Shown: positions 3,312-53,939 of the stretch, piece by piece
Layout of the letters: every line of letters begins with the position of its first letter
Position numbering within the stretch: the first letter of the stretch is position 1
Origin: an uncultured bacterium
GTDB taxonomy: Bacteria; Babelota; Babeliae; Babelales; RVW-14
Assembly (NCBI GenBank): GCA_963759805.1
Contig: CAVXAT010000002.1
Location: 137,479 to 201,478, forward strand
Direction of reading: 5' to 3'
Length of the DNA: 64,000 nt
Notes under the pieces: model-generated
Seen by the model: the letters and a program-made list of their open reading frames with translations, nothing else
What the model was told of the DNA's origin: nothing
The model's database searches: none
Position numbers and translations under genes: made by a program

Positions 3312-5111
3312 ATGAAAGAGATTGATAGTAAAAATCTAGAAACACAGATCAAAAATCTTCCCAGAAACTCTGGCGTTTATCTTTTTAAAGATTCTCAGGA
3401 TCTTGTTTTGTATATTGGCAAAGCCAAAAACTTAAAAAGTCGCGTATCAAGTTATTTAAAAAGCGATGACATAAAATCCTACTCACTACGGCAAGAGAGT
3501 GAGCATCTAGATTTTATAGTAACAAAAAATGAACTTGAAGCCATGCTTCTTGAAGCAAAATTAATTCAAACGCATCAACCGAAATTCAATGTACTTTTGA
3601 AAACTGGGCAGCCTTTTTTATGGATTCTAATAAGCCAAAATCTATCATCTGTCACATTACCTGAACTTAAGCTTGTACGTAATCAAAAACAGAAAGGCAC
3701 ATATTTCGGCCCATTTTTAGAAAAAAACTCGGCACGAAAGGTTTATGATTTCCTAATCAAGACATTCAGATTAAAACTGTGCAAAAAAAAGATTCCTAGC
3801 GGCTGCCTTGCGTACCACATGGGAATCTGTGCAGGAAAATGTAGACCTGATTTTGATAAAAACAGTTATCTGGAAAGAATCGAGCTTGCAAAGTTTGCAC
3901 TAAAGAACAATCATGCCGAATTTTTAAAACATTTAAAAAGTTTAATCAAAGAACATAACAAAAAGATGGAATTTGAAAAGGCTCGTCAACTTCACAGTTA
4001 TATGGCTGCATTTGAGAGAGTTTTTGATATTCTTGAAACTAAGCCAATAACAAAATTCAAACTCGATGAAAAAGATATCTGGTTTTTAACAGAAGACAAG
4101 TCTGCACTATTTTTATTTAAAGAGAAAAACAGTGTTCTTATAAAAAAAGAGGCTTTTTACTTTCCCAAAGAGTATCAATTGCCAGCCCAGTTTCTGGCTC
4201 CATTAGAACAAACCCTTCGACAGGCTCAGGGTGAGCGCAGAGAGCACCTTGAAGAACCCGCTCGTGGCGCCTGCCCGCCGAAGCTAAACCTAAGCGAAGG
4301 CTGGGAGCTTGTCGAACCATTTCAATGGGTTCTTAAGGCTCAGAAGAGGGCTCAGAAAAACTCTAATATCAAAGAATCTAGTTATCTAGATTTTTTTGAA
4401 AGTTACTATCGAACTTATCCCGCCCCATCAATCATTTTAGTTAATTTTGAAATTGATAATGCAACCCAAAAACTTTATCAAAAATTCATAAAATCTTGGC
4501 ATAAGAAAAGTTATGACGTCTCAATAATAATGAAGCCCGAATCCGGCCACTTTGCCAATCTGATCAAGTTAGCAAAAATTCATGTAGATGCAGAAATATC
4601 AAAACAGGCCACAATTCCAAAAGCACTGAAAAGTCTACTAAAACTCCCAATTGAGCCCCACACTATTGATTGTTTTGATATTTCACATAAACAGGGCATG
4701 TACATGGTTGGATCATGTGTACGTTTTGCCGATAACATCCCGGACAAAAAAAATTTTAGGCATTTTTATATAAAAAGCATAGAACAACAAAATGACTATG
4801 CCGCGTTGCATGAAATTGTTCAACGCAGGTACAGAAATACAAACGAACTTCCCGATTTAATCTTAATTGATGGAGGCAAGGGGCAACTCAACGCCGTCCA
4901 GAAACTATTTCCACAGGCAGAATTTGCAAGCTTGGCAAAAAAAGAAGAAACTGTTTTTTCTAAACGAATTCCTGAGGGTAAAAAACTGAATTTAAAAAGT
5001 TTTGTGGGACAAACATTAACCGCTCTTAGAGATTATGCACACCACTTTGCGATAAGTTTTCATCGCAAAGTGGAACACAAAAATTCATTTGATATTAACT
5101 CAATCGATTGA
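3312..5111 (+). CDS. uvrC: Excinuclease ABC subunit C
   Basis: GIY-YIG N-terminus (GVYLFKD..VLYIGKAKNLKSRVSSY). Endonuclease domain (IDCFDISH...LILIDGGKGQLN...RDYAHHFAISFHRK). Carries a GC-rich in-frame insert at about 4205-4345. The protein ends about 10 aa after FHRK, so no (HhH)2 tail is present. Confidence 0.92.
   Translation: MKEIDSKNLETQIKNLPRNSGVYLFKDSQDLVLYIGKAKNLKSRVSSYLKSDDIKSYSLRQESEHLDFIVTKNELEAMLLEAKLIQTHQPKFNVLLKTGQPFLWILISQNLSSVTLPELKLVRNQKQKGTYFGPFLEKNSARKVYDFLIKTFRLKLCKKKIPSGCLAYHMGICAGKCRPDFDKNSYLERIELAKFALKNNHAEFLKHLKSLIKEHNKKMEFEKARQLHSYMAAFERVFDILETKPITKFKLDEKDIWFLTEDKSALFLFKEKNSVLIKKEAFYFPKEYQLPAQFLAPLEQTLRQAQGERREHLEEPARGACPPKLNLSEGWELVEPFQWVLKAQKRAQKNSNIKESSYLDFFESYYRTYPAPSIILVNFEIDNATQKLYQKFIKSWHKKSYDVSIIMKPESGHFANLIKLAKIHVDAEISKQATIPKALKSLLKLPIEPHTIDCFDISHKQGMYMVGSCVRFADNIPDKKNFRHFYIKSIEQQNDYAALHEIVQRRYRNTNELPDLILIDGGKGQLNAVQKLFPQAEFASLAKKEETVFSKRIPEGKKLNLKSFVGQTLTALRDYAHHFAISFHRKVEHKNSFDINSID
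4213..4318. repeat. GC-rich palindromic repeat element, in-frame inside uvrC
   Basis: Local GC is far above the flanks. Inverted repeat TTCGACAGGCTC (4216-4227) / GAGCTTGTCGAA (4305-4316). Motifs CCCTTCGA, CTCAGGGTGAGCG and CCCGCTCGTGG are shared with 26041-26115; GCCTGCCCGCCGAAG is shared with 12834-12848. Confidence 0.6.
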
Positions 5112-5488: not shown

Positions 5489-6445
5489 TTATTTTTTGTT
5501 AAAAAGTTCTTTAATCGTTGTAAGCGAACCCATCAAAGCTGTAGCCTCATAAGGCATCATTATAATTTTATCGTCTTTGCCTTTTGTAATCTCAGGCAAT
5601 GTTTTAATGTAATTAATTGCAACCATGTATGGCAAAGGATCAGCGTTGGGGATAGCTTTTCTGACAACTTCAATTGAATCAGCTTCTGCTTGAGACAAAA
5701 TCAATCTGGCCTCAGCCTCTCCCTTTGCACGAGTAACTTTAGACTGATAGTCACCCTCAGCACAAAGAATTGCCGATGACTTTTGTCCTTCTGCTTCCAA
5801 AATCAAGGCACGACGATCACGCTCTGCTCTCATCTGTTTTTCCATTGCCTGCCGAATGTCAACAGGAGGCATAATCTCTTGTAACTCAACTCTATTAACT
5901 TTGACGCCCCATTTTTCGGTTGCATCATCAAGCACGTGCCTCAATCTCTCATTAATTCTATCACGCGACGTTAATGTTTCATCCAAATCCATCGAACCGA
6001 TTATGTTTCGCATGGTAGTTTGTGTCAGTTTTTCAATCGCAAGGGGAAGGTCTGCAACTTCATAAATGGCAGCCTTAGGATCAGTAATTTGATAGTAAAG
6101 TAAAACGCTTATTTCGATCGAAACATTATCTTTAGTTATAACACTCTGCCTTGGAAAGTCATAAACGGTTTCTCGTAAATCAATTCTATCAATAAAAGAG
6201 TTATATCTGTAAGTAACTTTTCCGCGAGGATCATCTTTTAAAAGAGTCCAGTAAACACTTCTGGGTTGATCCATAAATGGCACAACAAAATGCAACCCAG
6301 AGGTAAGCATCTTGTGAAAACACCCAAAGCGTTCAATCATAACAACTTCAGCTTGCCTGACCAGATAAGTTGATTTCAGAAGAGCTGCAAGCAAAAATAT
6401 AAACAAGACAGCAAAAAATACGGAAATAATCATTGTAATCATCAT
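5489..6445 (-). CDS. SPFH/Band 7 (stomatin-like) protein
   Basis: N-terminal TM plus an SPFH core (VRQAEVVMIERFGCFHK..GLHFVVPFMD..ITKDNVSIEISVLLYYQITDP..RNIIGSMDLDETL). Ala/Glu-rich coiled coil follows. Confidence 0.85.
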   Translation of the reverse strand: MMITMIISVFFAVLFIFLLAALLKSTYLVRQAEVVMIERFGCFHKMLTSGLHFVVPFMDQPRSVYWTLLKDDPRGKVTYRYNSFIDRIDLRETVYDFPRQSVITKDNVSIEISVLLYYQITDPKAAIYEVADLPLAIEKLTQTTMRNIIGSMDLDETLTSRDRINERLRHVLDDATEKWGVKVNRVELQEIMPPVDIRQAMEKQMRAERDRRALILEAEGQKSSAILCAEGDYQSKVTRAKGEAEARLILSQAEADSIEVVRKAIPNADPLPYMVAINYIKTLPEITKGKDDKIIMMPYEATALMGSLTTIKELFNKK

Positions 6446-6945
6446 AAACTCCTAACAACAAGCTTGTTACCCTGAATATCAACAATTTTAACAACAGTGC
6501 CAATTTGCAACATAGAGCCATCTCTTATAATTGCCCCCCACAACTCTCTATTAACTTTGACCGCCCCAGGTTGATTCACACTAATTGGTTCAACAACTAC
6601 CGCCTCTTGCCCAATCAACGCATCAACATTTGTTTTATTATCAAGATTTTTGGTTTTGTGTGTTGCAAAAAAAGATTTAATAGCAATGAAACAGACTGCC
6701 CCACCCAGAAGTGCAATCACAATTTGAAAAATTATTGAGAAATCAAAAAAAGCTACGATTGCAGCACACACGGCACCACATGCAAAGGCAACGAAAAAAA
6801 ATAACCCTGGAGTTGAAAGTTCAAGAAGAAGCAGTACCAGAGCAAGAATCAGCCACACATAGGGCGTATATCCAAGATATTGAACCAGTAAATTATTATT
6901 AAGTTCCCTATAATATTCTTTCATAGTCCAAAAATATTCTTTCAT
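6442..6945 (-). CDS. NfeD family membrane protein
   Basis: Multi-TM N-terminal half and a C-terminal OB-like segment (GQEAVVVEPI..GAVKVNRELWGAII..VKIVDIQGNKLVV). ATGA 4-nt overlap with the downstream SPFH gene, the classical nfeD-stomatin operon. Alternative start at 6924. Confidence 0.7.
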   Translation of the reverse strand: MKEYFWTMKEYYRELNNNLLVQYLGYTPYVWLILALVLLLLELSTPGLFFFVAFACGAVCAAIVAFFDFSIIFQIVIALLGGAVCFIAIKSFFATHKTKNLDNKTNVDALIGQEAVVVEPISVNQPGAVKVNRELWGAIIRDGSMLQIGTVVKIVDIQGNKLVVRSL

Positions 6946-8694: not shown

Positions 8695-9504
8695 TCAGCG
8701 ACCATCAATTTCAAATTCTTTTTTCAAATAACTTTGTTCAATAGGGGTAAAGGCACACCATGCCAAAATCAATTGAACCGGATCACCATCTTTGTTCAAG
8801 TGAGGCAGATTTACAATATCATAAAATTCATTCATTCTGTTTTGTTTTTTGAGATATTTAAGAATCAAAATTAATAGAACTTGATTAAAATCTGTAACAT
8901 TACGACATATCATTAAAGGGACAGCAGGTATTCCCGCCCAAGTGACCACATATTTGCCATCAGGACTCCATGCCCCCGATTTCCTCCGGCCGTTTGATGT
9001 TACTTCGTATAGATCAAATGATGCCCCTTCAATAATATCTCCCTCGGGATTCAATGCTACCGAGCACATCGAATCTTTATACGATGCAAGCGTTCTGCAT
9101 TCTCCTGTTTCTACATTCCATTCCCTTGCCGTTCCATCAGATAATACCCCTGCAATATATTCACCATCAGGACTCCATACTACTGAGCTCATCCGTCTTT
9201 CACTCTCAGCACCCAAGGTTTTGTGCAACACAAAAAAATCGGGTAATAAGCTCGCTGCCAAACCTTTTGGCACTTCAGGATCTTCACAATACTTTTCAAA
9301 AAAATTTAATTTTTCAAAAAAGTTTAACGTTTCGACATCCCCTGCAATCAATTTTTCTATAAAAGCGTCTGTTTTCACAATACTCGCAACACATGCAGTA
9401 CAACTTTCCTGCAATTTTGGCATAGCAACCAAAACTGTTTTTTGAGAGCAAGTGATCAAGGGTAAAATCAAAAATAATTTTGTTGTTTTAAATAAATTTT
9501 TCAT
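8695..9504 (-). CDS. Secreted WD40-repeat protein, short paralog of 9501..10604
   Basis: Signal peptide. WSPDG(E/K)Y WD-type repeats. A 151-nt N-terminal segment (9237-9387) differs at only 2 positions from 10292-10442. Lacks one repeat and the C-terminal extension of its neighbour. Confidence 0.7.
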   Translation of the reverse strand: MKNLFKTTKLFLILPLITCSQKTVLVAMPKLQESCTACVASIVKTDAFIEKLIAGDVETLNFFEKLNFFEKYCEDPEVPKGLAASLLPDFFVLHKTLGAESERRMSSVVWSPDGEYIAGVLSDGTAREWNVETGECRTLASYKDSMCSVALNPEGDIIEGASFDLYEVTSNGRRKSGAWSPDGKYVVTWAGIPAVPLMICRNVTDFNQVLLILILKYLKKQNRMNEFYDIVNLPHLNKDGDPVQLILAWCAFTPIEQSYLKKEFEIDGR

Positions 9505-10604
9505 AAATTCTGGAGCACAACACTTACCATCTGGGGCACATCAAAACCCTTACCATTAAATACTTCTAGTGAGTATCGAGTTATCGAGCCATCTTGAAAA
9601 CACTGTTCAAGCTCAGGGTCAATACCAAATCTTTCTTTCAGATAACGCTGTTCAATAGGAGTAAAGGCATACCATGCTAAAATCAACTGAATCTGATCGG
9701 CCTCTCTATTTAAGTGGGGCTCATTTACAATTTTATAAAATTCATTCATTCGATTGTGTTTTTTAAGATATTGAAGAACTAAAAATAATAGAATTTGATT
9801 AAAATCTGCAACTTCACGCCATATCGTTAAAGGAGTACCGTCTCGCCAACTGACCAAATATTCGCCATCAGGACTCCATGCTCCCGATATCCCCTGATGT
9901 TTATTCCAGCCATTTGATCTTACTTTGTATAGATCAAATAATGTGCTGTGAAGAGTTTTCCACTCATGACTAAATGATACCCAAATCGAATCTTTATACG
10001 ATGCAAGCGTTCTGAATTCTCCTGTTTCTACATTCCATTCTCTTGCCGTTCCATCATATAATACCCCTGCAATACATTTACCATCAGGACTCCATGCTAC
10101 TGACTTAACCCCACAACCATGCACTGTAAACACTCTGCATTCTCTTGATGCTACATGCCATATGCTTACTATTCCATCAAATGAGGGAATTTTAAATGAT
10201 GCACTGGCAATATATTTACCATCAGGACTCCATGCTACTGATGACGTCCACGTTGCAACCTCTACAGCCAAGATTTTGTGTTGCACAAAGAAATCGGGTA
10301 ATAAGCTCGCTGCCAAACCTTTTGGCGCTTCAGGATCTTCACAATACTTTTCAAAAAAATTTAATTTTTCAAAAAAGTTTAACGTTTCGACATCCCCTGA
10401 AATCAATTTTTCTATAAAAGCGTCTGTTTTCACAATACTCGCGATTCGCGCAGCGCAACTTTCCTGCAAAGTCAACATTCCAAATAAAATTGTTTTTTGA
10501 AAGCAAGCGATCAGGAATAAAATTAAAAATAATTTTGTTGTTTTTACTAAATTGTTCATAAATAATCCCAAAGCTAAGTAAAAGTTAAGTAATAGAATAA
10601 ACAT
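9501..10604 (-). CDS. Secreted WD40-repeat protein
   Basis: Repeated AWSPDGKYIAS / VAWSPDGKCIAG / AWSPDGEYLVS..W motifs. Signal-like N-terminus; the likely real start is MNNLVKTTKLF at 10559. ATGA overlap with the downstream paralog. Confidence 0.75.
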   Translation of the reverse strand: MFILLLNFYLALGLFMNNLVKTTKLFLILFLIACFQKTILFGMLTLQESCAARIASIVKTDAFIEKLISGDVETLNFFEKLNFFEKYCEDPEAPKGLAASLLPDFFVQHKILAVEVATWTSSVAWSPDGKYIASASFKIPSFDGIVSIWHVASRECRVFTVHGCGVKSVAWSPDGKCIAGVLYDGTAREWNVETGEFRTLASYKDSIWVSFSHEWKTLHSTLFDLYKVRSNGWNKHQGISGAWSPDGEYLVSWRDGTPLTIWREVADFNQILLFLVLQYLKKHNRMNEFYKIVNEPHLNREADQIQLILAWYAFTPIEQRYLKERFGIDPELEQCFQDGSITRYSLEVFNGKGFDVPQMVSVVLQNL

Positions 10605-10706
10605 AATACAACTAAGTTGGGAGAGTTTAGCAACAAAAACGAAAAAGTAAAATTTAGATTATGTTTTTATATTTTAAATTGATAGCTTTAAAATTACGCT
10701 CTATTT

Positions 10707-11852
10707 TTATCTTCCAAGCACCTCTTGCCATGTAGGCAAAACCATATCATCAATCATTATCTCATTGATCATGCGCAGCGGCAACTCCGACAATGATTGT
10801 GCCGGGGAGTTCTCGCCTAGGCGCGGATGTTGGACGAGGGCTAGCGTTAACATTTGACGTTTTTGAAGTTTTCTTTCTTGCGTAATTCTTTGTGCAGGCA
10901 AATTTGTCCATATTACTACTCTAACCTCAGATCCATTAAATCCATTCTGTGTAACAATCATGGCCGCTATTTGCATCCCATCTGGGCTAAATGCTATTTT
11001 GAATACGTAACCATCTCCATATTTAAATGTATGAATGCAAGTCTTACTCTGCATATCCCACAACTCAATTTTTCCATCATTGTCTCTATTCTCACATGCG
11101 ATAGCAAAAAGACTTCCATCCGAACTGAATGCTACTGCATTTGATGTTGCATAACAATGTCCCACCACGGGCCATAATTCAAACAGTGGAATACATGTGT
11201 CTTTACCCAAATCCAATAAACCAAGACCTTTTAAAAGGCGCGACTCACCTAAAAGGCACGGCCCACAATAAACCAAAATATTATCATACAAATTGAATGC
11301 TAACGCATCTACAGAACCACTGCATTTAATCGTATGTATACGTTCCATAGTCGTCAAATTCCATACACTAACTTCTCCAGAATCATCTCCGGAGGCCAAA
11401 ATGTTACCGTCTGAGTTGAATGCTAACGCTTCTACACAGCCACTAACTTCAAATTTATGTATATTCTTGCCCAACTTCAGATTCCATAATGCAACTTCAC
11501 GCTGACCTCCAGAGGCCAAAATGTTACCATTGGGACTGATTGCCAATGCCCATGCTAAACAATCAATTTCAAGATCACGAGTGCAAATCCTAGACTGCAT
11601 ATTCCAAAATTTGAAATGATCATACCGTTGCCCCCATTTCCATTTAAACTCATGAACCAAAAATTCTCCCCCATGACTGGTTGCCAACGCAGTCAAAGGC
11701 GCACCGCCTTTGTAGCAACCTATATTAACTAAAGTCTCATCTATTACACTCTCATCTATGCCTGGTGCTGCAGCCGCCGCCGACAAATTAGCTGCATAAA
11801 ATAAAACATGTGCAAACAGTATTGTTTTAATGCAATTTTTGATATTCTCCAC
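10707..11852 (-). CDS. Secreted WD40-repeat protein with GC-rich C-terminal tail
   Basis: Signal peptide (..ANLSAAAAAPG). Repeats ISPNGNILASGG..VALWNL, FNSDGNILASGD..VSVWNL, FSSDGSLFAIA..IELWDM, FSPDGMQIAA. The tail LALVQHPRLGENSPAQSLSELPLRMINEI is encoded by unusually GC-rich DNA. Confidence 0.8.
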   Translation of the reverse strand: MENIKNCIKTILFAHVLFYAANLSAAAAAPGIDESVIDETLVNIGCYKGGAPLTALATSHGGEFLVHEFKWKWGQRYDHFKFWNMQSRICTRDLEIDCLAWALAISPNGNILASGGQREVALWNLKLGKNIHKFEVSGCVEALAFNSDGNILASGDDSGEVSVWNLTTMERIHTIKCSGSVDALAFNLYDNILVYCGPCLLGESRLLKGLGLLDLGKDTCIPLFELWPVVGHCYATSNAVAFSSDGSLFAIACENRDNDGKIELWDMQSKTCIHTFKYGDGYVFKIAFSPDGMQIAAMIVTQNGFNGSEVRVVIWTNLPAQRITQERKLQKRQMLTLALVQHPRLGENSPAQSLSELPLRMINEIMIDDMVLPTWQEVLGR

Positions 11853-12672
11853 TGCCTTGCCCCTTCTTCCAAATGGTTATATTTCCATCAGAACATCCGG
11901 CCGCTACTTGCATACCATCTTGATTTAACGCCACTGCAGTTACCCACCTAGAACCACATTTGAACACATTTATGCATGCCCTTGCCTTCAGATCCCATAA
12001 CTCAACTTTTCCTAATTGATCTACAAAAGCCAAAAAGTTACCATCTGAGGTGAACGCTGCTGCTTGATCGGAAGGGTATACTGTTTGACTCACTTCCAAC
12101 ACAGAATTACATGTATTTGCCTTCAAATCTAACAGCTTAACAGCTCGGGCACTCACACAAAAAGCTAAAATGTTGCCATCTGGGTTGAACGCTAATGCGC
12201 ATACCCAATCTTTACACTCAAACTTATGAATAAGTGTGTCTGTATTCAGATTCCATACCTCAACATTTCCGCCTTCCCCAATGGCCAAAGTTTTACCATC
12301 CGGACTGAAAGCTACTGAGAATACATAATTTTTGCAGGGAAAAGTAAATATATTTTTTTTCTCGTTTAAATCGACCAAATCAACCTTGCCATTAGATCCC
12401 ACAGCCAAACCGCCACCTCCCGGACTAAATGCTAGCGCACGTGCAGAACCAACATATCCAAAATCACAAAAACGTCCATCCGACAAAAATTTCCATAATA
12501 GAGCATTCTCATCATGGGCAAAAGCCAAATCTTTCTCATTCGGACTAAAGGCTAATGCATGGACTGTCGCCTCCCCATACACCGGATCAGCGCAGGCAGC
12601 ATTGAGATTAGCAGGCCCAAACAGAACAAATAAAAACAACCCAGTTTTAATAAAGTTTTTGATACTCTTCAT
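11827..12672 (-). CDS. Secreted WD40-repeat protein
   Basis: Signal peptide (..ANLNAACA). Repeats FSPNEKDLAFA, FSPGGGGLAVG, FSPDGKTLAIG..VEVWNL, FNPDGNILAF, FTSDGNFLAF..VELWDL, LNQDGMQVAAG..ITIW. 26-nt overlap with the next WD40 gene. Confidence 0.8.
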   Translation of the reverse strand: MKSIKNFIKTGLFLFVLFGPANLNAACADPVYGEATVHALAFSPNEKDLAFAHDENALLWKFLSDGRFCDFGYVGSARALAFSPGGGGLAVGSNGKVDLVDLNEKKNIFTFPCKNYVFSVAFSPDGKTLAIGEGGNVEVWNLNTDTLIHKFECKDWVCALAFNPDGNILAFCVSARAVKLLDLKANTCNSVLEVSQTVYPSDQAAAFTSDGNFLAFVDQLGKVELWDLKARACINVFKCGSRWVTAVALNQDGMQVAAGCSDGNITIWKKGQGSGEYQKLH

Positions 12673-12781
12673 AGATACATCTCCTTATTTTTTCACTAAA
12701 CATTATTTTGATATAAAGCGTATCAAAATATATCGAATTTAATATTAAAAAAGAGAAAGTTTTTTGCAAAATTCACAGTCA

Positions 12782-12900
12782 GGGAGGCTGTTGTCATCCG
12801 CCGTCGCCAAAGCTTGGCTGTAGCGAGATTTCAGCCTGCCCGTCGAAGTATTAACTACATACCAAATTTTTTTGAACGAATAAAGCGAGGTCGGGCGTAA
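12782..12900. repeat. Intergenic copy of the GC-rich palindromic repeat family
   Basis: GC-rich island in an AT-rich spacer. GGGAGGCTG (12782-12790) pairs with CAGCCTGCCC (12833-12842). GCCTGCCCGTCGAAG (12834-12848) matches uvrC 4269-4283 at 14 of 15 positions. GCGAGGTCGGGCG resembles GCGAGGCGTATCG in the gnd insert. Confidence 0.5.
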
Positions 12901-23103: not shown

Positions 23104-24369
23104 CTATTTTACCCGTCTTTGTTTAGCTGATAACTTTCTATGCTTAACTGAAGCCTTTTCATACCCCTGCTCAATTTTACCCAGCAATGTTTTTAGCTCT
23201 GTTTTATATTTCTTCAAATTTGGAGTTTCGTTACAATATTTAAAGATTTTCACACCACTTTTAGGATCAAGCATTTTTTTATTCATCAGAAGCCTAAATT
23301 GCATAGTATCCAACACATTCCCGGATAAATCACTGTCAAAAGAGTCACAATCCTTGTACGCCTCCAAATCTTTTGATGCTGGATTGTATGATATACCGCC
23401 AAATATTTTATTGAGGAGTGATTTACCACATGGGCCATATACAAAGCCTCCAGGGGCACACCGATATGCAACCTCATCAACTAATTTTTGGGGAACAAAA
23501 ATTTGAAGCAAAAGACCCGTTTTTTCCTTTTCATAATCACCAAGCAGATTATTAAGTTCCTTAATCAATTCTCGATATTGATCGAAATATTTATTCATCT
23601 TGAAAGCCTGAAACGCCTGACTCACTAAATCACACACATCCACCTCTGTTACATTGCTTGAATTAATAAAATAACAAAAGGAGCATTCCCCTCCCCAATC
23701 CAAAGCCGTATTACCAAACAATGTTGAATTTACCGAAAGTAAATATTTTTTGACATGAGGCTGTGTGTCAAACCATACCAAATGGTTTGTTAGCTCGCCA
23801 TTGTCCATATATTGCTTTATAAAGTTTTCAACCGACCCAAATTTACTAAAATCTTTATCCGGAAACCTAAGCATCACAAAATCATGTAAAATTTTTTTAT
23901 AAGCAATTTTATAAAGCCCTTGATAAATATCCTGAGGCAATGTAAATTCACGCTTTTGGCCATGATAAAAAACATAATAATCATCTTTAAATTCAATTTC
24001 CTTTTCAATGATTTCTCTGAATAATTCCTTAAAAAAATTGGAGCCTAATTCATTTACTCTTTTGCTAAAATGCCAATTCAGATTTTCATAAAGGGTATGA
24101 TTGGAAAGATATGCCAACGTCTGGGTCTGCTTTGGCTTATCAATGCTATTTTTTAAGCCCAATTTTTGATAAGCATCGTCAATTATATTCGTGACATTCA
24201 AGTCTTGGCCCGGACAATATGCAGCAAAAAGCGATGCCTGAAGAGACAATACATTCAAGTCTTGGCCCGGACAATATGCAGCAAAAAGCGATGCCTGAAG
24301 AGACAATAATATTAATGCTATAAATAAGAATCTATTTTTTAGATTTACAACCACCATTTTAACCCCCAT
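23104..24369 (-). CDS. Hypothetical secreted protein with duplicated leader segment
   Basis: Long ORF with a hydrophobic N-terminus. 19 aa (LSLQASLFAAYCPGQDLNV) occur twice because of a perfect 57-bp tandem duplication. No recognisable catalytic motif. Confidence 0.5.
   Translation of the reverse strand: MGVKMVVVNLKNRFLFIALILLSLQASLFAAYCPGQDLNVLSLQASLFAAYCPGQDLNVTNIIDDAYQKLGLKNSIDKPKQTQTLAYLSNHTLYENLNWHFSKRVNELGSNFFKELFREIIEKEIEFKDDYYVFYHGQKREFTLPQDIYQGLYKIAYKKILHDFVMLRFPDKDFSKFGSVENFIKQYMDNGELTNHLVWFDTQPHVKKYLLSVNSTLFGNTALDWGGECSFCYFINSSNVTEVDVCDLVSQAFQAFKMNKYFDQYRELIKELNNLLGDYEKEKTGLLLQIFVPQKLVDEVAYRCAPGGFVYGPCGKSLLNKIFGGISYNPASKDLEAYKDCDSFDSDLSGNVLDTMQFRLLMNKKMLDPKSGVKIFKYCNETPNLKKYKTELKTLLGKIEQGYEKASVKHRKLSAKQRRVK
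24194..24307. repeat. Perfect 57-bp tandem duplication (2 copies) inside CDS 23104..24369
   Basis: 24194-24250 and 24251-24307 are identical by manual alignment (ACATTCAAGTCTTGGCCCGGACAATATGCAGCAAAAAGCGATGCCTGAAGAGACAAT). Confidence 0.95.
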
Positions 24370-25227: not shown

Positions 25228-26298
25228 CTACTTTTTATTACCCGCGATATCTTTGCCAACCCTGTCCACAGCATGTCCACCAAACTGATTCCGCAGCATA
25301 GCAACAACTTTTGTCGCATAATTTCCGCCATCTTGCCTGGAATCAGCACGAATCTGCAGTGCACGTTCAATTAGATCAACAGGAACGTTCTGCTCTTTAG
25401 CCTCGTCAAGCATCCATCGTCCTGTTTTGTTTTCGCCTATCTTCCCGGAGATTTCCGTTAAATTTTGATCATGTTCAAAAATGTTATGGGCTAGCTCTAA
25501 AATCCACGATCTTATAATCGAGCCATGATTCCATACGTCAGAAATTTTTTCAAGATCCAAGTCTTTATATTTGCCTTGTTTGAGAAGATGGAAACCTTCT
25601 GCGTAAGCCTGCAGTAATGCATACTCAATTCCGTTATGAATCATCTTAACATAATGACCGGCCCCGGAAGGCCCCATGTATGCATATCCCTGTGGAGCAG
25701 CAATGGCTTTAAAAATTGTCTCAAGATGCTCAAAAACTTTTTTATCTCCACCAATCATAAGAGAGAATCCAATATCTTTGCCATGTAGTCCACCGGACGT
25801 ACCACAATCAACGTAATTTATTTTTTGGGATATTAAATTTTGATATCGACGAACCGTATCTTTAAAATTGCTGTTCCCGCCGTCTATAATTATATCGTCC
25901 GGCTTTAGATATGGAGTCAGTTCGTTAATAACGTTATCGACTGTATCACCCGCCGGAACCATAAGCCAAAAAATATTTACCTGCGTTACACCATTCGAAG
26001 TAAATTTTATGCCCGCATGGTTCGATACATTTTTTTTGGCCGCTCGCCCTGAGTGCCGAGCTTTGCGAGGCGTATCGAAGGGTGCGGCCTGCAAAAAACA
26101 CTCACCACGAGCGGGCACGTTTGGTTCATTAACTATGCCAAGATCTTGCAGCTTTGCCACAGTTTTAACACCGACATCAGCTGCTAATCTTAAATTTTTT
26201 TCATTACTATCAAAACCCCAAACCTCATGCCCATATTTTAAAAGTCTGTATGCAATAGCATGCCCCATCCGGCCAAGACCAATTACGCTTATTTTCAT
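25228..26298 (-). CDS. gnd: 6-phosphogluconate dehydrogenase (decarboxylating, short Gnd/YqeC-like form) with an in-frame GC-rich insert
   Basis: MKISVIGLGRMGHAIAYRL (Rossmann GxGxxG), WLMVPAG, GGNSNF, GTSGG, and GAGHYVKMIHNGIEYALLQAYAEG. An extra segment ..PARGECFLQAAPFDTPRKARHSGRAAKK.. is encoded by 26037-26118. Confidence 0.82.
   Translation of the reverse strand: MKISVIGLGRMGHAIAYRLLKYGHEVWGFDSNEKNLRLAADVGVKTVAKLQDLGIVNEPNVPARGECFLQAAPFDTPRKARHSGRAAKKNVSNHAGIKFTSNGVTQVNIFWLMVPAGDTVDNVINELTPYLKPDDIIIDGGNSNFKDTVRRYQNLISQKINYVDCGTSGGLHGKDIGFSLMIGGDKKVFEHLETIFKAIAAPQGYAYMGPSGAGHYVKMIHNGIEYALLQAYAEGFHLLKQGKYKDLDLEKISDVWNHGSIIRSWILELAHNIFEHDQNLTEISGKIGENKTGRWMLDEAKEQNVPVDLIERALQIRADSRQDGGNYATKVVAMLRNQFGGHAVDRVGKDIAGNKK
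26037..26118. repeat. GC-rich palindromic repeat element, in-frame inside gnd
   Basis: On the gene's sense strand: CCCGCTCGTGG (26115-26105), CCCTTCGA (26082-26075) and CTCAGGGCGAGCG (26053-26041). All three are shared with the uvrC insert. Confidence 0.6.
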
Positions 26299-53762: not shown

Positions 53763-53854
53763 GGAGAGATGGCTGAGTGGTTGAAAGCGACCGCCTCGAA
53801 AGCGGTTATTCCGGGAAACTGGAATCGTGGGTTCGAATCCCACTCTCTCCACCA
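53763..53854 (+). tRNA. tRNA-Ser (anticodon CGA), CCA encoded
   Basis: Manual cloverleaf: acceptor GGAGAGA/TCTCTCC; anticodon stem ACCGC/GCGGT with loop CTCGAAA; long variable arm (TATTCCGGGAAACTGGAATC); T arm GTGGG-TTCGAAT-CCCAC; 3' ACCA. Confidence 0.9.
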
Positions 53855-53868
53855 GTCTTCGCTGCTTC

Positions 53869-53939
53869 GCAGCTTCGTCTGGCAGGAAAGCAGCTTCGTC
53901 TGGCAAGCCATCCAATTTAGGCTAGTTACTAGCTTGCCA
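53869..53939. repeat. GC-rich direct repeat plus hairpin immediately 3' of tRNA-Ser
   Basis: GCAGCTTCGTCTGGCA occurs at 53869-53884 and 53890-53905 (period 21). Nested inverted repeats follow: TGGCAAGC (53901-53908) / GCTTGCCA (53932-53939), and GCTAG/CTAGC. Confidence 0.6.

Follow-up and report, generated by a model that had tools for sequence, protein, structure and literature searches.

The uvrC locus and its GC-rich insert

We analyzed a 64 kb stretch of contig CAVXAT010000002.1 from an uncultured bacterium, called the window in the following, and focused on a GC-rich palindromic segment which lies in frame within its uvrC gene. All positions are those of the window unless a relative is named. 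The window is AT-rich with a GC content of 36.2%, and the proteins nearest to its UvrC and its 6-phosphogluconate dehydrogenase were labelled Candidatus Babeliales or Dependentiae (TM6). The uvrC open reading frame (ORF) is uninterrupted, as an earlier note on this DNA had stated (Table 1). Within uvrC the GC content rises to 0.59 at 4200-4299 and 0.56 at 4250-4349, compared to 0.26-0.36 in the flanks, and the highest value for 60 nt within 4178-4332 was 0.70. The earlier note had described this rise correctly, but its extent of about 45 codons was too large, as the GC-rich core comprises 107 nt (4213-4319) or about 36 codons. The encoded peptide was correctly given as LRQAQGERREHLEEPARGACPPKLNLSEGWELVEP. 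The inverted repeat formed by TTCGACAGGCTC (4216-4227) and GAGCTTGTCGAA (4305-4316), with 11 of 12 positions complementary, and the motifs CCCTTCGA (4213-4220), CTCAGGGTGAGCG (4225-4237), CCCGCTCGTGG (4257-4267) and GCCTGCCCGCCGAAG (4269-4283) were found exactly where they had been placed. The window UvrC and its Babeliales homologs, which have about 520-530 amino acids (aa) without inserts, stop directly after the RNase H endonuclease domain, and Pfam detected no C-terminal helix-hairpin-helix domain in the window UvrC (3312-5111).

The core is a dimer of two inverted units of 25-27 nt. From 243 copies the unit consensus xxx-TTCGACARGCTCA-yyy-YGARCGG was derived, where xxx and yyy stand for variable triplets. 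Unit A is intact and scored 39.8 bits with the position weight matrix (PWM) at 4212-4238, compared to a shuffle maximum of 16.3 bits. Unit B is inverted and interrupted by a nested piece of 37 nt, which stands in place of the lone A that otherwise separates GCTC from the CCA triplet and so lengthens the unit by 36 nt. In the relatives L001 and L003 the halves of unit B are contiguous (CCCGCTCGTGGTGAGCTTGTCGAACCA, PWM 34 bits), and their uvrC core reads CCCTTCGACAGGCTCAGGGTGAGCG, a 19-nt spacer and CCCGCTCGTGGTGAGCTTGTCGAACCA, with 40.6 and 34.3 bits for the two units. RNA folding of 4160-4380 yielded one long hairpin at about 4184-4352 (z = -3.1 relative to shuffles), in which the mismatch of the arms becomes a G-U pair in the sense RNA. 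The hairpin is longer than the earlier note had stated.

Table 1. Positions of the uvrC and gnd inserts, their parts and related features in the window.
Feature	Position	Strand	Remarks
uvrC	3312-5111	+	599 aa, uninterrupted ORF; 100% match to P0001; Babeliales UvrC homologs
UvrC Pfam domains	aa 20-93; aa 354-423; aa 441-581		GIY-YIG; UvrC_RNaseH (below Pfam cut-off); RNase H endonuclease
Variable linker segment	4179-4382	+	68 codons; differs from relatives without the element; roughly equals the low-confidence residues 287-355
Left outer AT-rich arm	4184-4212	+	AGCCCAGTTTCTGGCTCCATTAGAACAAA; pairs with 4320-4352 (RNA fold); also in L001, L003, L127
Unit A	4213-4237	+	CCC-TTCGACAGGCTCA-GGG-TGAGCG; intact, CCC/GGG type; translated LRQAQGER; matches cross-phylum 22-mer
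Spacer (dimer loop)	4238-4256	+	19 nt
Unit B, tail half, inverted	4257-4267	-	TGG/CCA type; + strand reads CCCGCTCGTGG
Nested 37-nt piece	4268-4304	-	- strand reads CCAGCCTTCGCTTAGGTTTAGCTTCGGCGGGCAGGCG; encodes ACPPKLNLSEGW
Unit B, core half, inverted	4305-4319	-	+ strand reads GAGCTTGTCGAACCA; 16.0 bits when split
Right outer AT-rich arm	4320-4352	+	RNA fold; long-hairpin partner of 4184-4212
Intergenic GC-rich hairpin	12781-12848	+	GGGAGGCTG ... CAGCCTGCCC; 3' arm CAGCCTGCCCGTCGAAG resembles one nested-piece end; weak relation, 14/15 nt
gnd-like gene, decarboxylating 6-phosphogluconate dehydrogenase	25228-26298	-	356 aa; second host gene
gnd insert	25981-26139	-	Residues 54-106, about 50 aa; splits NAD_binding_2 (Pfam: two stretches)
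GC-rich mosaic within gnd insert	26009-26118	-	Unit B halves CCCGCTCGTGGTGAG ... TCGAACCATG, 77 nt apart
Stand-alone nested-piece relative with partial second copy	53852-53909	+	CCAGTCTTCGCTGCTTCGCAGCTTCGTCTGGCAGG; starts at CCA end of tRNA-Ser(CGA)

Relatives with and without the element

For comparison the DNA of relatives was fetched and 23 Babeliales UvrC sequences were aligned. The closest proteins without the segment, P0005 and P0006 (82% identity, 532-534 aa), pass straight through the site. P0002 and P0003 (84%) carry LRQAQGERSEHLEEPARG-ELVEP and lack the inner twelve residues encoded by the nested piece. The segment is also absent from L002, L005, L142 and L129. L129 is 93-97% identical over 20 kb to the element-bearing L001, and at the linker L001 has 168 nt (6279-6446) where L129 has an unrelated AT-rich sequence of 72 nt. 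L127 and L001 are 94.6-97.5% identical, and the three gaps between them in 4.8 kb, 63 nt in total (+36, +36, -9), all lie inside the element. These are strains of a sister species with about 95% nucleotide identity to one another, and among them the turnover of the element is directly visible. That the segment is a lineage-specific insertion, as proposed earlier with an alignment of orthologs as check, was borne out by P0005, P0006 and L129 and, for the second insert in gnd, by its absence from 15 of 15 homologs. The element was present in five independent assemblies (NCBI/ENA, JGI, Logan) and is therefore not an assembly artefact.

One insertion could be read from end to end. In L002, compared to L142 (94% identical), a dimer of 93 nt is cleanly inserted at the very end of uvrC, with the 8-nt direct repeat ACCCAGCT at or near both ends. 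The region opposite L003 2204-2366 in L129 was considered as a further clean empty site and ruled out, as L129 has a decayed unit there.

Dispersal in Dependentiae

A metagenome scan provided 80 Dependentiae uvrC loci with flanks. Using a PWM cutoff of >18 bits, 35 units were found in 942 kb of Dependentiae DNA, compared to 0-2 in ten composition-preserving shuffles of this DNA. The expectation that further copies exist thus held in the related DNA in which they were searched for. The unit remains GC-rich in genomes of 31-42% GC. Copies are located both between genes and inside long ORFs. Intergenic copies were found in L002 (3562-3611), in L003 (2285-2350) and as two 98-nt dimers in L204, which are 88% identical, 2.7 kb apart and flank ordinary genes. 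ORFs of >250 aa with copies were uvrC of L130, L138 (three units) and L163, a gnd-like ORF in L138 and a 279-aa ORF in L189. In L181 a unit lies 20 nt past the uvrC match, and the L002 copy also lies right after a gene 3' end.

The L138 locus (10001-12064) deserves a separate description. Its uvrC is distant (45% identity) and carries the three units at different positions, two of them with a nested piece. It was read as two ORFs of 359 and 344 aa, so a pseudogene or a sequencing error is possible. The gnd-like ORF holding a unit adjoins this uvrC.

Reading frame and structural tolerance

Each of the six insertions and deletions observed inside the uvrC element has a length divisible by three: +36 in the window, +36, +36 and -9 in L127, +30 and -69 in L004. 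If independent, six such events have a chance of about (1/3)^6, with the reservation that a single event may account for the piece common to the window and L127. The preservation of the frame argues that uvrC is read through the element. Of the six frames of a unit, five are open and encode PFDKLRAN, PSTSSGRT, LRQAQGER, PFALSLSK and VRPELVEG, which makes survival of an inserted copy in frame likely.

AlphaFold, using the alignment of 23 sequences as input, predicted residues 287-355 with a local confidence (pLDDT) of 26-37, compared to 78-89 on either side. This low-confidence excursion lies between the strand 275-283 and the helix 357-368, inside the RNase H-like region of UvrC as assigned by Pfam. 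The uvrC linker was also surveyed with regular expressions, by which 18 of 86 loci were parsed; the view of the linker as an insertion hotspot is based on these loci and on the 23 aligned sequences. Among the parsed Dependentiae loci the linker varies from 13 to 90 aa. Linkers of at least 39 aa are GC-rich, while that of L129 (37 aa) is the AT-rich exception, and at least three groups of differing insert sequence were distinguished, so the site was colonised more than once. An intein or a known domain was considered for the inserts and discarded, as the insert peptides of uvrC and gnd matched nothing in Pfam and are far too short. A nested-piece copy in L204 (7919-7947) encodes SSFAKASADRH at another site of uvrC.

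A second insert in gnd

The second host gene of the window encodes a 6-phosphogluconate dehydrogenase (Table 1). Its insert is absent from all 15 aligned homologs, one of which is 87% identical over the aligned residues. The 77 nt between its unit B halves contain a split unit A (CCCTTCGA ... CTCAGGGCGAGCGG) and a stem of a T-run and an A-run. On the sense strand of gnd CCCGCTCGTGG is found at 26115-26105, ACCCTTCGA at 26083-26075, CTCAGGGCGAGCG at 26053-26041 (12 of 13 nt) and TCGAACCAT at 26025-26017. Sharing of motifs between uvrC and gnd, as claimed before, is hence correct, except that the gnd copy of CTCAGGGTGAGCG is one base off. Both inserts are mosaics, which is why the motifs common to them are not collinear. 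The translations confirmed that P-A-R-G is read in both proteins.

The exact 356-aa gnd product was not in the protein collection, whereas the UvrC of the same contig was; the insert may have made annotators drop or truncate the gene. Other Dependentiae gnd genes showed different GC-rich inserts in frame, namely P0137 in the middle of the gene and P0126 and P0127 with a C-terminal ...FAPEELRRAG... sequence.

The unit family across phyla

The sequence of unit A was then found far outside the Dependentiae. In a scan with one genome per species, other phyla yielded at least 120 stretches with the 22-mer TTCGACARGCTCAGGGYGARCG, and among the matches listed the hosts were Burkholderiales, Sphingomonadales, Dehalococcoidia, cyanobacteria, Methylococcales, Deltaproteobacteria, Sulfuricurvum and Moraxella. 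Predicted viral or prophage contigs of IMG/VR contained a slightly broader pattern, TTCGACARGCTCAGGRYGARCG, in at least 120 stretches (including L207-L286). Reverse complementarity of the triplets xxx and yyy was seen in 230 of the 267 units from other phyla and 29 of the 33 from Dependentiae, with pairs such as CCC/GGG, GGC/GCC, TGG/CCA, TGC/GCA, TCC/GGA and the AT-shifted TTC/GAA. Most units were arranged as inverted dimers, which joined units of different triplet type in 91 cases and of the same type in 6 cases in other phyla (10 versus 1 in Dependentiae). A forward CCC unit followed by an inverted TGG unit, as in the uvrC core, was observed five times among the loci from other phyla. The units of the window fit this family, with unit A of the CCC...GGG type and unit B of the TGG...CCA type in an inverted dimer of different triplet types.

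Plasmids and cultured phages were considered as carriers and rejected, with three weak matches to megaplasmids and none to phages; the 72-nt Babeliales dimer had no match in 50,697 cultured phage records. A transposase was also sought by guilt by association at the 120 loci from other phyla, which yielded only ABC ATPases, CoA-transferases and similar abundant families. In the Dehalococcoidia loci L039 and L103, repeats of the CGTC type and tandem arrays of partial units adjoin the units, so that several repeat families cluster there.

The nested piece and its relatives

The nested piece at 4268-4304 is missing from L001 and L003 and present in L127. A similar piece (CCAGSCTTCGC...GCTTCGGCGGRCA...) is located at the same position in four split units on three Dependentiae contigs (window, L127 and two in L138), and in none of the 267 units from other phyla was a nested piece found between GCTC and the triplet. 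Unit A of L127 and of L004 contains a related piece at the equivalent position. Since L127 is close to L001, which lacks the piece, and the window is distant and has it, the piece was gained repeatedly at one site, or lost, or gene-converted.

Relatives of the nested piece also occur outside of units. In the window (53763-53909) the tRNA-Ser(CGA) is followed by a GC-rich 35-nt relative and then by a partial second copy. A similar piece in L129 (about 1510-1557) follows a tRNA-like 3' end (...GGCACCA). The earlier note had reported GCCTGCCCGCCGAAG at 12834-12848 as well. A match is present there, but it is not exact (14 of 15 nt) and with E = 1.7 on its own at chance level.

An intergenic composite in L003 (2204-2366) has the outer arms CTTCTGAAAC...GTTTCAGAAG, which resemble the uvrC-insert arms CTTCTGACTC...GACTCAGAAG of L001, and in this composite the nested piece is placed after TGGTT of the unit and not after GCTC. 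The outer AT-rich arms may not belong to the dispersed element, as about 1 Mb of Dependentiae DNA contained no other copies, although the L003 composite has similar CTTCTGA...TCAGAAG arms.

Origin of the uvrC segment

On this evidence we consider it probable, at roughly 75%, that the uvrC segment belongs to a non-autonomous dispersed repeat that forms hairpins, and that this copy was inserted in frame and is tolerated in a surface loop. The insertion would have taken place in an ancestor of the lineages of the window, L001, L003, L004 and L127, at the loop which joins a beta-strand to the following helix in the RNase H-like region of UvrC. All later changes inside the element kept the frame, including the gain of 36 nt by which unit B of the window was split. 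Of this reading, the insertions, the dispersal, the turnover between strains and the preserved frame are demonstrated by the data. A second and more scrambled mosaic of these units, present in this genome only, would have been inserted into gnd, at a loop of its NAD-binding domain. The repeat may persist in uvrC because the unit is open in five of six frames, because it was inserted without a frame shift and because additional residues are tolerated at the site. The insert is probably translated and harmless. New copies presumably arise by transposition in trans, while conversion between copies could explain the nested pieces. The direct repeat at the L002 insertion hints, as one case, at a transposase of the cut-and-paste or copy-and-paste type. 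The covariation of the triplet stem even in AT-decayed copies and the preservation of the loop across phyla point to a constraint on each unit, which may be a recognition structure for the mover or a function at the RNA or DNA level. A selected function in uvrC itself is unlikely, given that the element is missing from close relatives and that one arm is broken or deleted in some copies.

Several observations weigh against this interpretation. No transposase or other gene was recurrently found beside the units at the 120 loci from other phyla, and a genome-wide search in this organism was not made. The window contains only the one intact unit, a single copy per 64 kb. Neither a target-site duplication nor a clean boundary was readable at uvrC; between L129 and L001 the linker is exchanged as a whole, in contrast to a simple insertion. 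The 8-nt direct repeat is a single case, and its left copy lies 7 nt inside the boundary. DNA folding only modestly exceeded shuffles (z = -1.4 for the window, -1.6 for the L001 copy), and the gnd mosaic, which folds as a single long hairpin, did no better than its shuffles (z of about -0.9). Finally, the outer arms of the uvrC hairpin had no further copies in the Dependentiae DNA searched. At gnd, too, no target-site duplication was readable.

It is improbable, in our view, that the hairpin is retained because of some role of its own, such as translation pausing, mRNA stability, binding of a host factor or DNA structure, and that its presence in uvrC and gnd is selected. The fold of the sense RNA with its G-U pair, the small stem conserved through change up to TTC/GAA, and the high GC content of the unit in GC-poor genomes would agree with such a function, and repetitive extragenic palindromic sequences (REPs) elsewhere affect mRNA stability and termination (PMC3733652). 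Close relatives do without the element, however, and a required structure should forbid both the splitting of an arm by 37 nt in the window and the loss of one arm in the L004 copy. Moreover, the host genes and the positions within them are unrelated, and the fold of the gnd mosaic is at chance level.

We give slightly less weight still to the explanation that the differences between strains arose by recombination, i.e., by exchange of uvrC linker alleles or conversion by other copies, with an element that is possibly no longer mobile here. L129 and L001 indeed show the pattern of an allele replacement, as they are identical in the 69 nt before the linker and, after it, in the final 30 nt of the segment that was extracted, with nothing alignable in between. 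The window and L127 also share the position of the nested piece, although L127 is closer to L001 (about 95% identical), which lacks it, than to the window (only about 80%). The pair L002 and L142, on the other hand, differs by a simple insertion with a flanking direct repeat; conversion needs donor copies and so presupposes a dispersed family; and for the gnd insert no allele donor was present among the 15 homologs. That an ordinary low-complexity linker expanded locally, with chance likeness among GC-rich DNA or an assembly chimera, is refuted by the results and hardly credible: linker length does vary across the phylum and single short matches such as that at 12834-12848 are at chance level, but unit A far exceeds the shuffle maximum and is identical to the 22-mer pattern of the other genomes, the five assemblies share the element, and the units in the related DNA greatly outnumber the shuffle expectation.

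Beyond the insertion of a dispersed repeat into uvrC, a wider proposal is tentative and, on balance, rather doubtful: the unit might be an undescribed miniature mobile DNA which crosses phyla and also occurs in viral contigs. It would be characterized by a conserved loop of 11-13 nt, a covarying stem of 3-5 bp, heterotypic inverted dimers and no linked transposase. In the host-dependent, AT-rich Dependentiae it would repeatedly write peptides into housekeeping enzymes, like the palindromic elements of Rickettsia, and it would be the specific target of a second element of 34-37 nt, which entered between GCTC and the 3' triplet in the cases observed.

Comparison with known repeat families

The earlier note had compared the segment to the Rickettsia palindromic elements (RPEs), of which RPE-1 to RPE-10 were described by Ogata et al. 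(2000, 2002; summarised in PMC10969869 and PMC3733652). The behaviour is indeed alike. RPEs are palindromic, dispersed, intergenic as well as in frame in conserved housekeeping genes including repair genes (PMC10969869, PMC3733652), reside in an AT-rich, host-dependent bacterial host, add a few dozen residues where the fold tolerates them, and their copies decay and vary between close relatives. Membership in the family was not supported. The unit described here is GC-rich, has 25-27 nt and is common to many phyla, whereas RPEs are genus-specific with about 100-150 bp. RPE-4 and RPE-6 are REPs of the CGTC type (PMC3733652), and their CGTC tag and stem of 8-9 bp are missing here. Copies are far fewer here, with about one unit in every 27 kb of our sample, compared to 44 RPE insertions in ORFs alone in R. 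conorii (count cited in PMC10969869). Our results thus support an element which behaves like the RPE and CGTC families, is not of the CGTC type and is probably no RPE. Residence in frame had been called the hallmark of RPEs; the resemblance stands, but such residence is not unique to Rickettsia, as REPs of the GTAG and CGTC types inside ORFs were published (PMC3733652), with uvrA, uvrB and other repair genes among the decorated ORFs (Di Nocera et al., 2013, PMC3733652).

Similarities to REPs, bacterial interspersed mosaic elements (BIMEs) and REP doublets forming hairpins (REPINs) are also clear, as these short units are mostly arranged as inverted dimers whose spacer allows hairpins (PMC3733652; Bertels and Rainey, 2011, PMC3116915). 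REPs prefer heterodimers, as do the units here, and for CGTC REPs no linked transposase was found either (PMC3733652). Both are mostly intergenic, often directly after a gene 3' end, and sometimes inside ORFs. Tagged REPs carry an unpaired GTAG or CGTC (variants TGTC, CCTC) at one end of the unit (PMC3733652). No GTAG, CTAC, CGTC or GACG was found in 4213-4319, and TGTC lies inside the conserved loop and not at an end. REPs have a stem of 8-9 bp or longer (8-9 bp in CGTC families) and a loop of 4-5 nt, in contrast to the stem of 3-5 bp, formed by the triplets and at most extended to 5 bp by adjacent bases, and the conserved loop of 11-13 nt (TTCGACARGCTCA) found here, so that the conserved part is the loop and not the stem. 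True CGTC-1 units (ATTCCCGC-loop-GCGGGAAT-GACG), which adjoin the units in L039 and L103, are clearly different. REPINs and their REP-associated tyrosine transposases (RAYTs) were described as mostly vertically inherited (PMC3116915), unlike the present sequence, which spans phyla. A further difference is the 8-nt direct repeat at one of the insertions analyzed here. To our knowledge, RAYT-type single-strand transposition leaves no direct repeat.

In bacteria, miniature inverted-repeat transposable elements, or MITEs, are likewise small and non-coding with inverted-repeat ends, and are occasionally fused in frame to ORFs (PMC10969869). Nesting of elements is shared as well, and one insertion analyzed here has an 8-nt direct repeat, offset by 7 nt on the left. 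In contrast, the element described here has no known parent insertion sequence whose ends match, its inverted repeats account for almost all of its length, and the direct repeat was seen once.

Rfam contained no family at gathering score for the window and 14 unit-bearing loci, and none at E <= 1 for 4100-4450. Open-access full text, in which sequences printed in figures escape a search, yielded no relevant paper for the unit sequence or its translations, and no string of the unit occurs in the text or supplements of PMC3733652. In the Babela genome paper one IS4 transposase is mentioned, and repeats of this kind are not. Reports of such repeats in Dependentiae were not found in open-access full text, in agreement with the earlier note, which knew of no description for this lineage. 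A palindromic repeat in frame in a repair gene is already known. What appears to be new is its occurrence in this host lineage, a unit with covarying triplets that spans phyla, and a nested piece specific to one site.

These results point to the Dependentiae as a second lineage of host-dependent AT-rich bacteria whose conserved proteins are reshaped by palindromic repeats, which means that Rickettsia is no lone exception. As public metagenomes hold close strains with and without the element and with differing nested pieces, insertion, decay and frame selection become directly measurable. The occurrence of the unit in Babeliales, Sphingomonadales, Burkholderiales, Dehalococcoidia, cyanobacteria and viral contigs raises the question by what means so short a sequence is maintained in different phyla or spreads between them. 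For annotation pipelines, inserts can cause mis-called genes, and translations of the unit can give spurious ORFs.

Other repeats in the window

Two further regions of the window are repetitive. At 24194-24308 a unit of 57 nt is tandemly duplicated (2.0 copies, 100% identical). The region 8700-12650 on the minus strand contains several ORFs with long direct repeats (300 nt at 85% and 122 nt at 94% identity) and resembles an array of paralogous repeat-protein genes; the comparable place in L004 is occupied by a WD40 beta-propeller gene.

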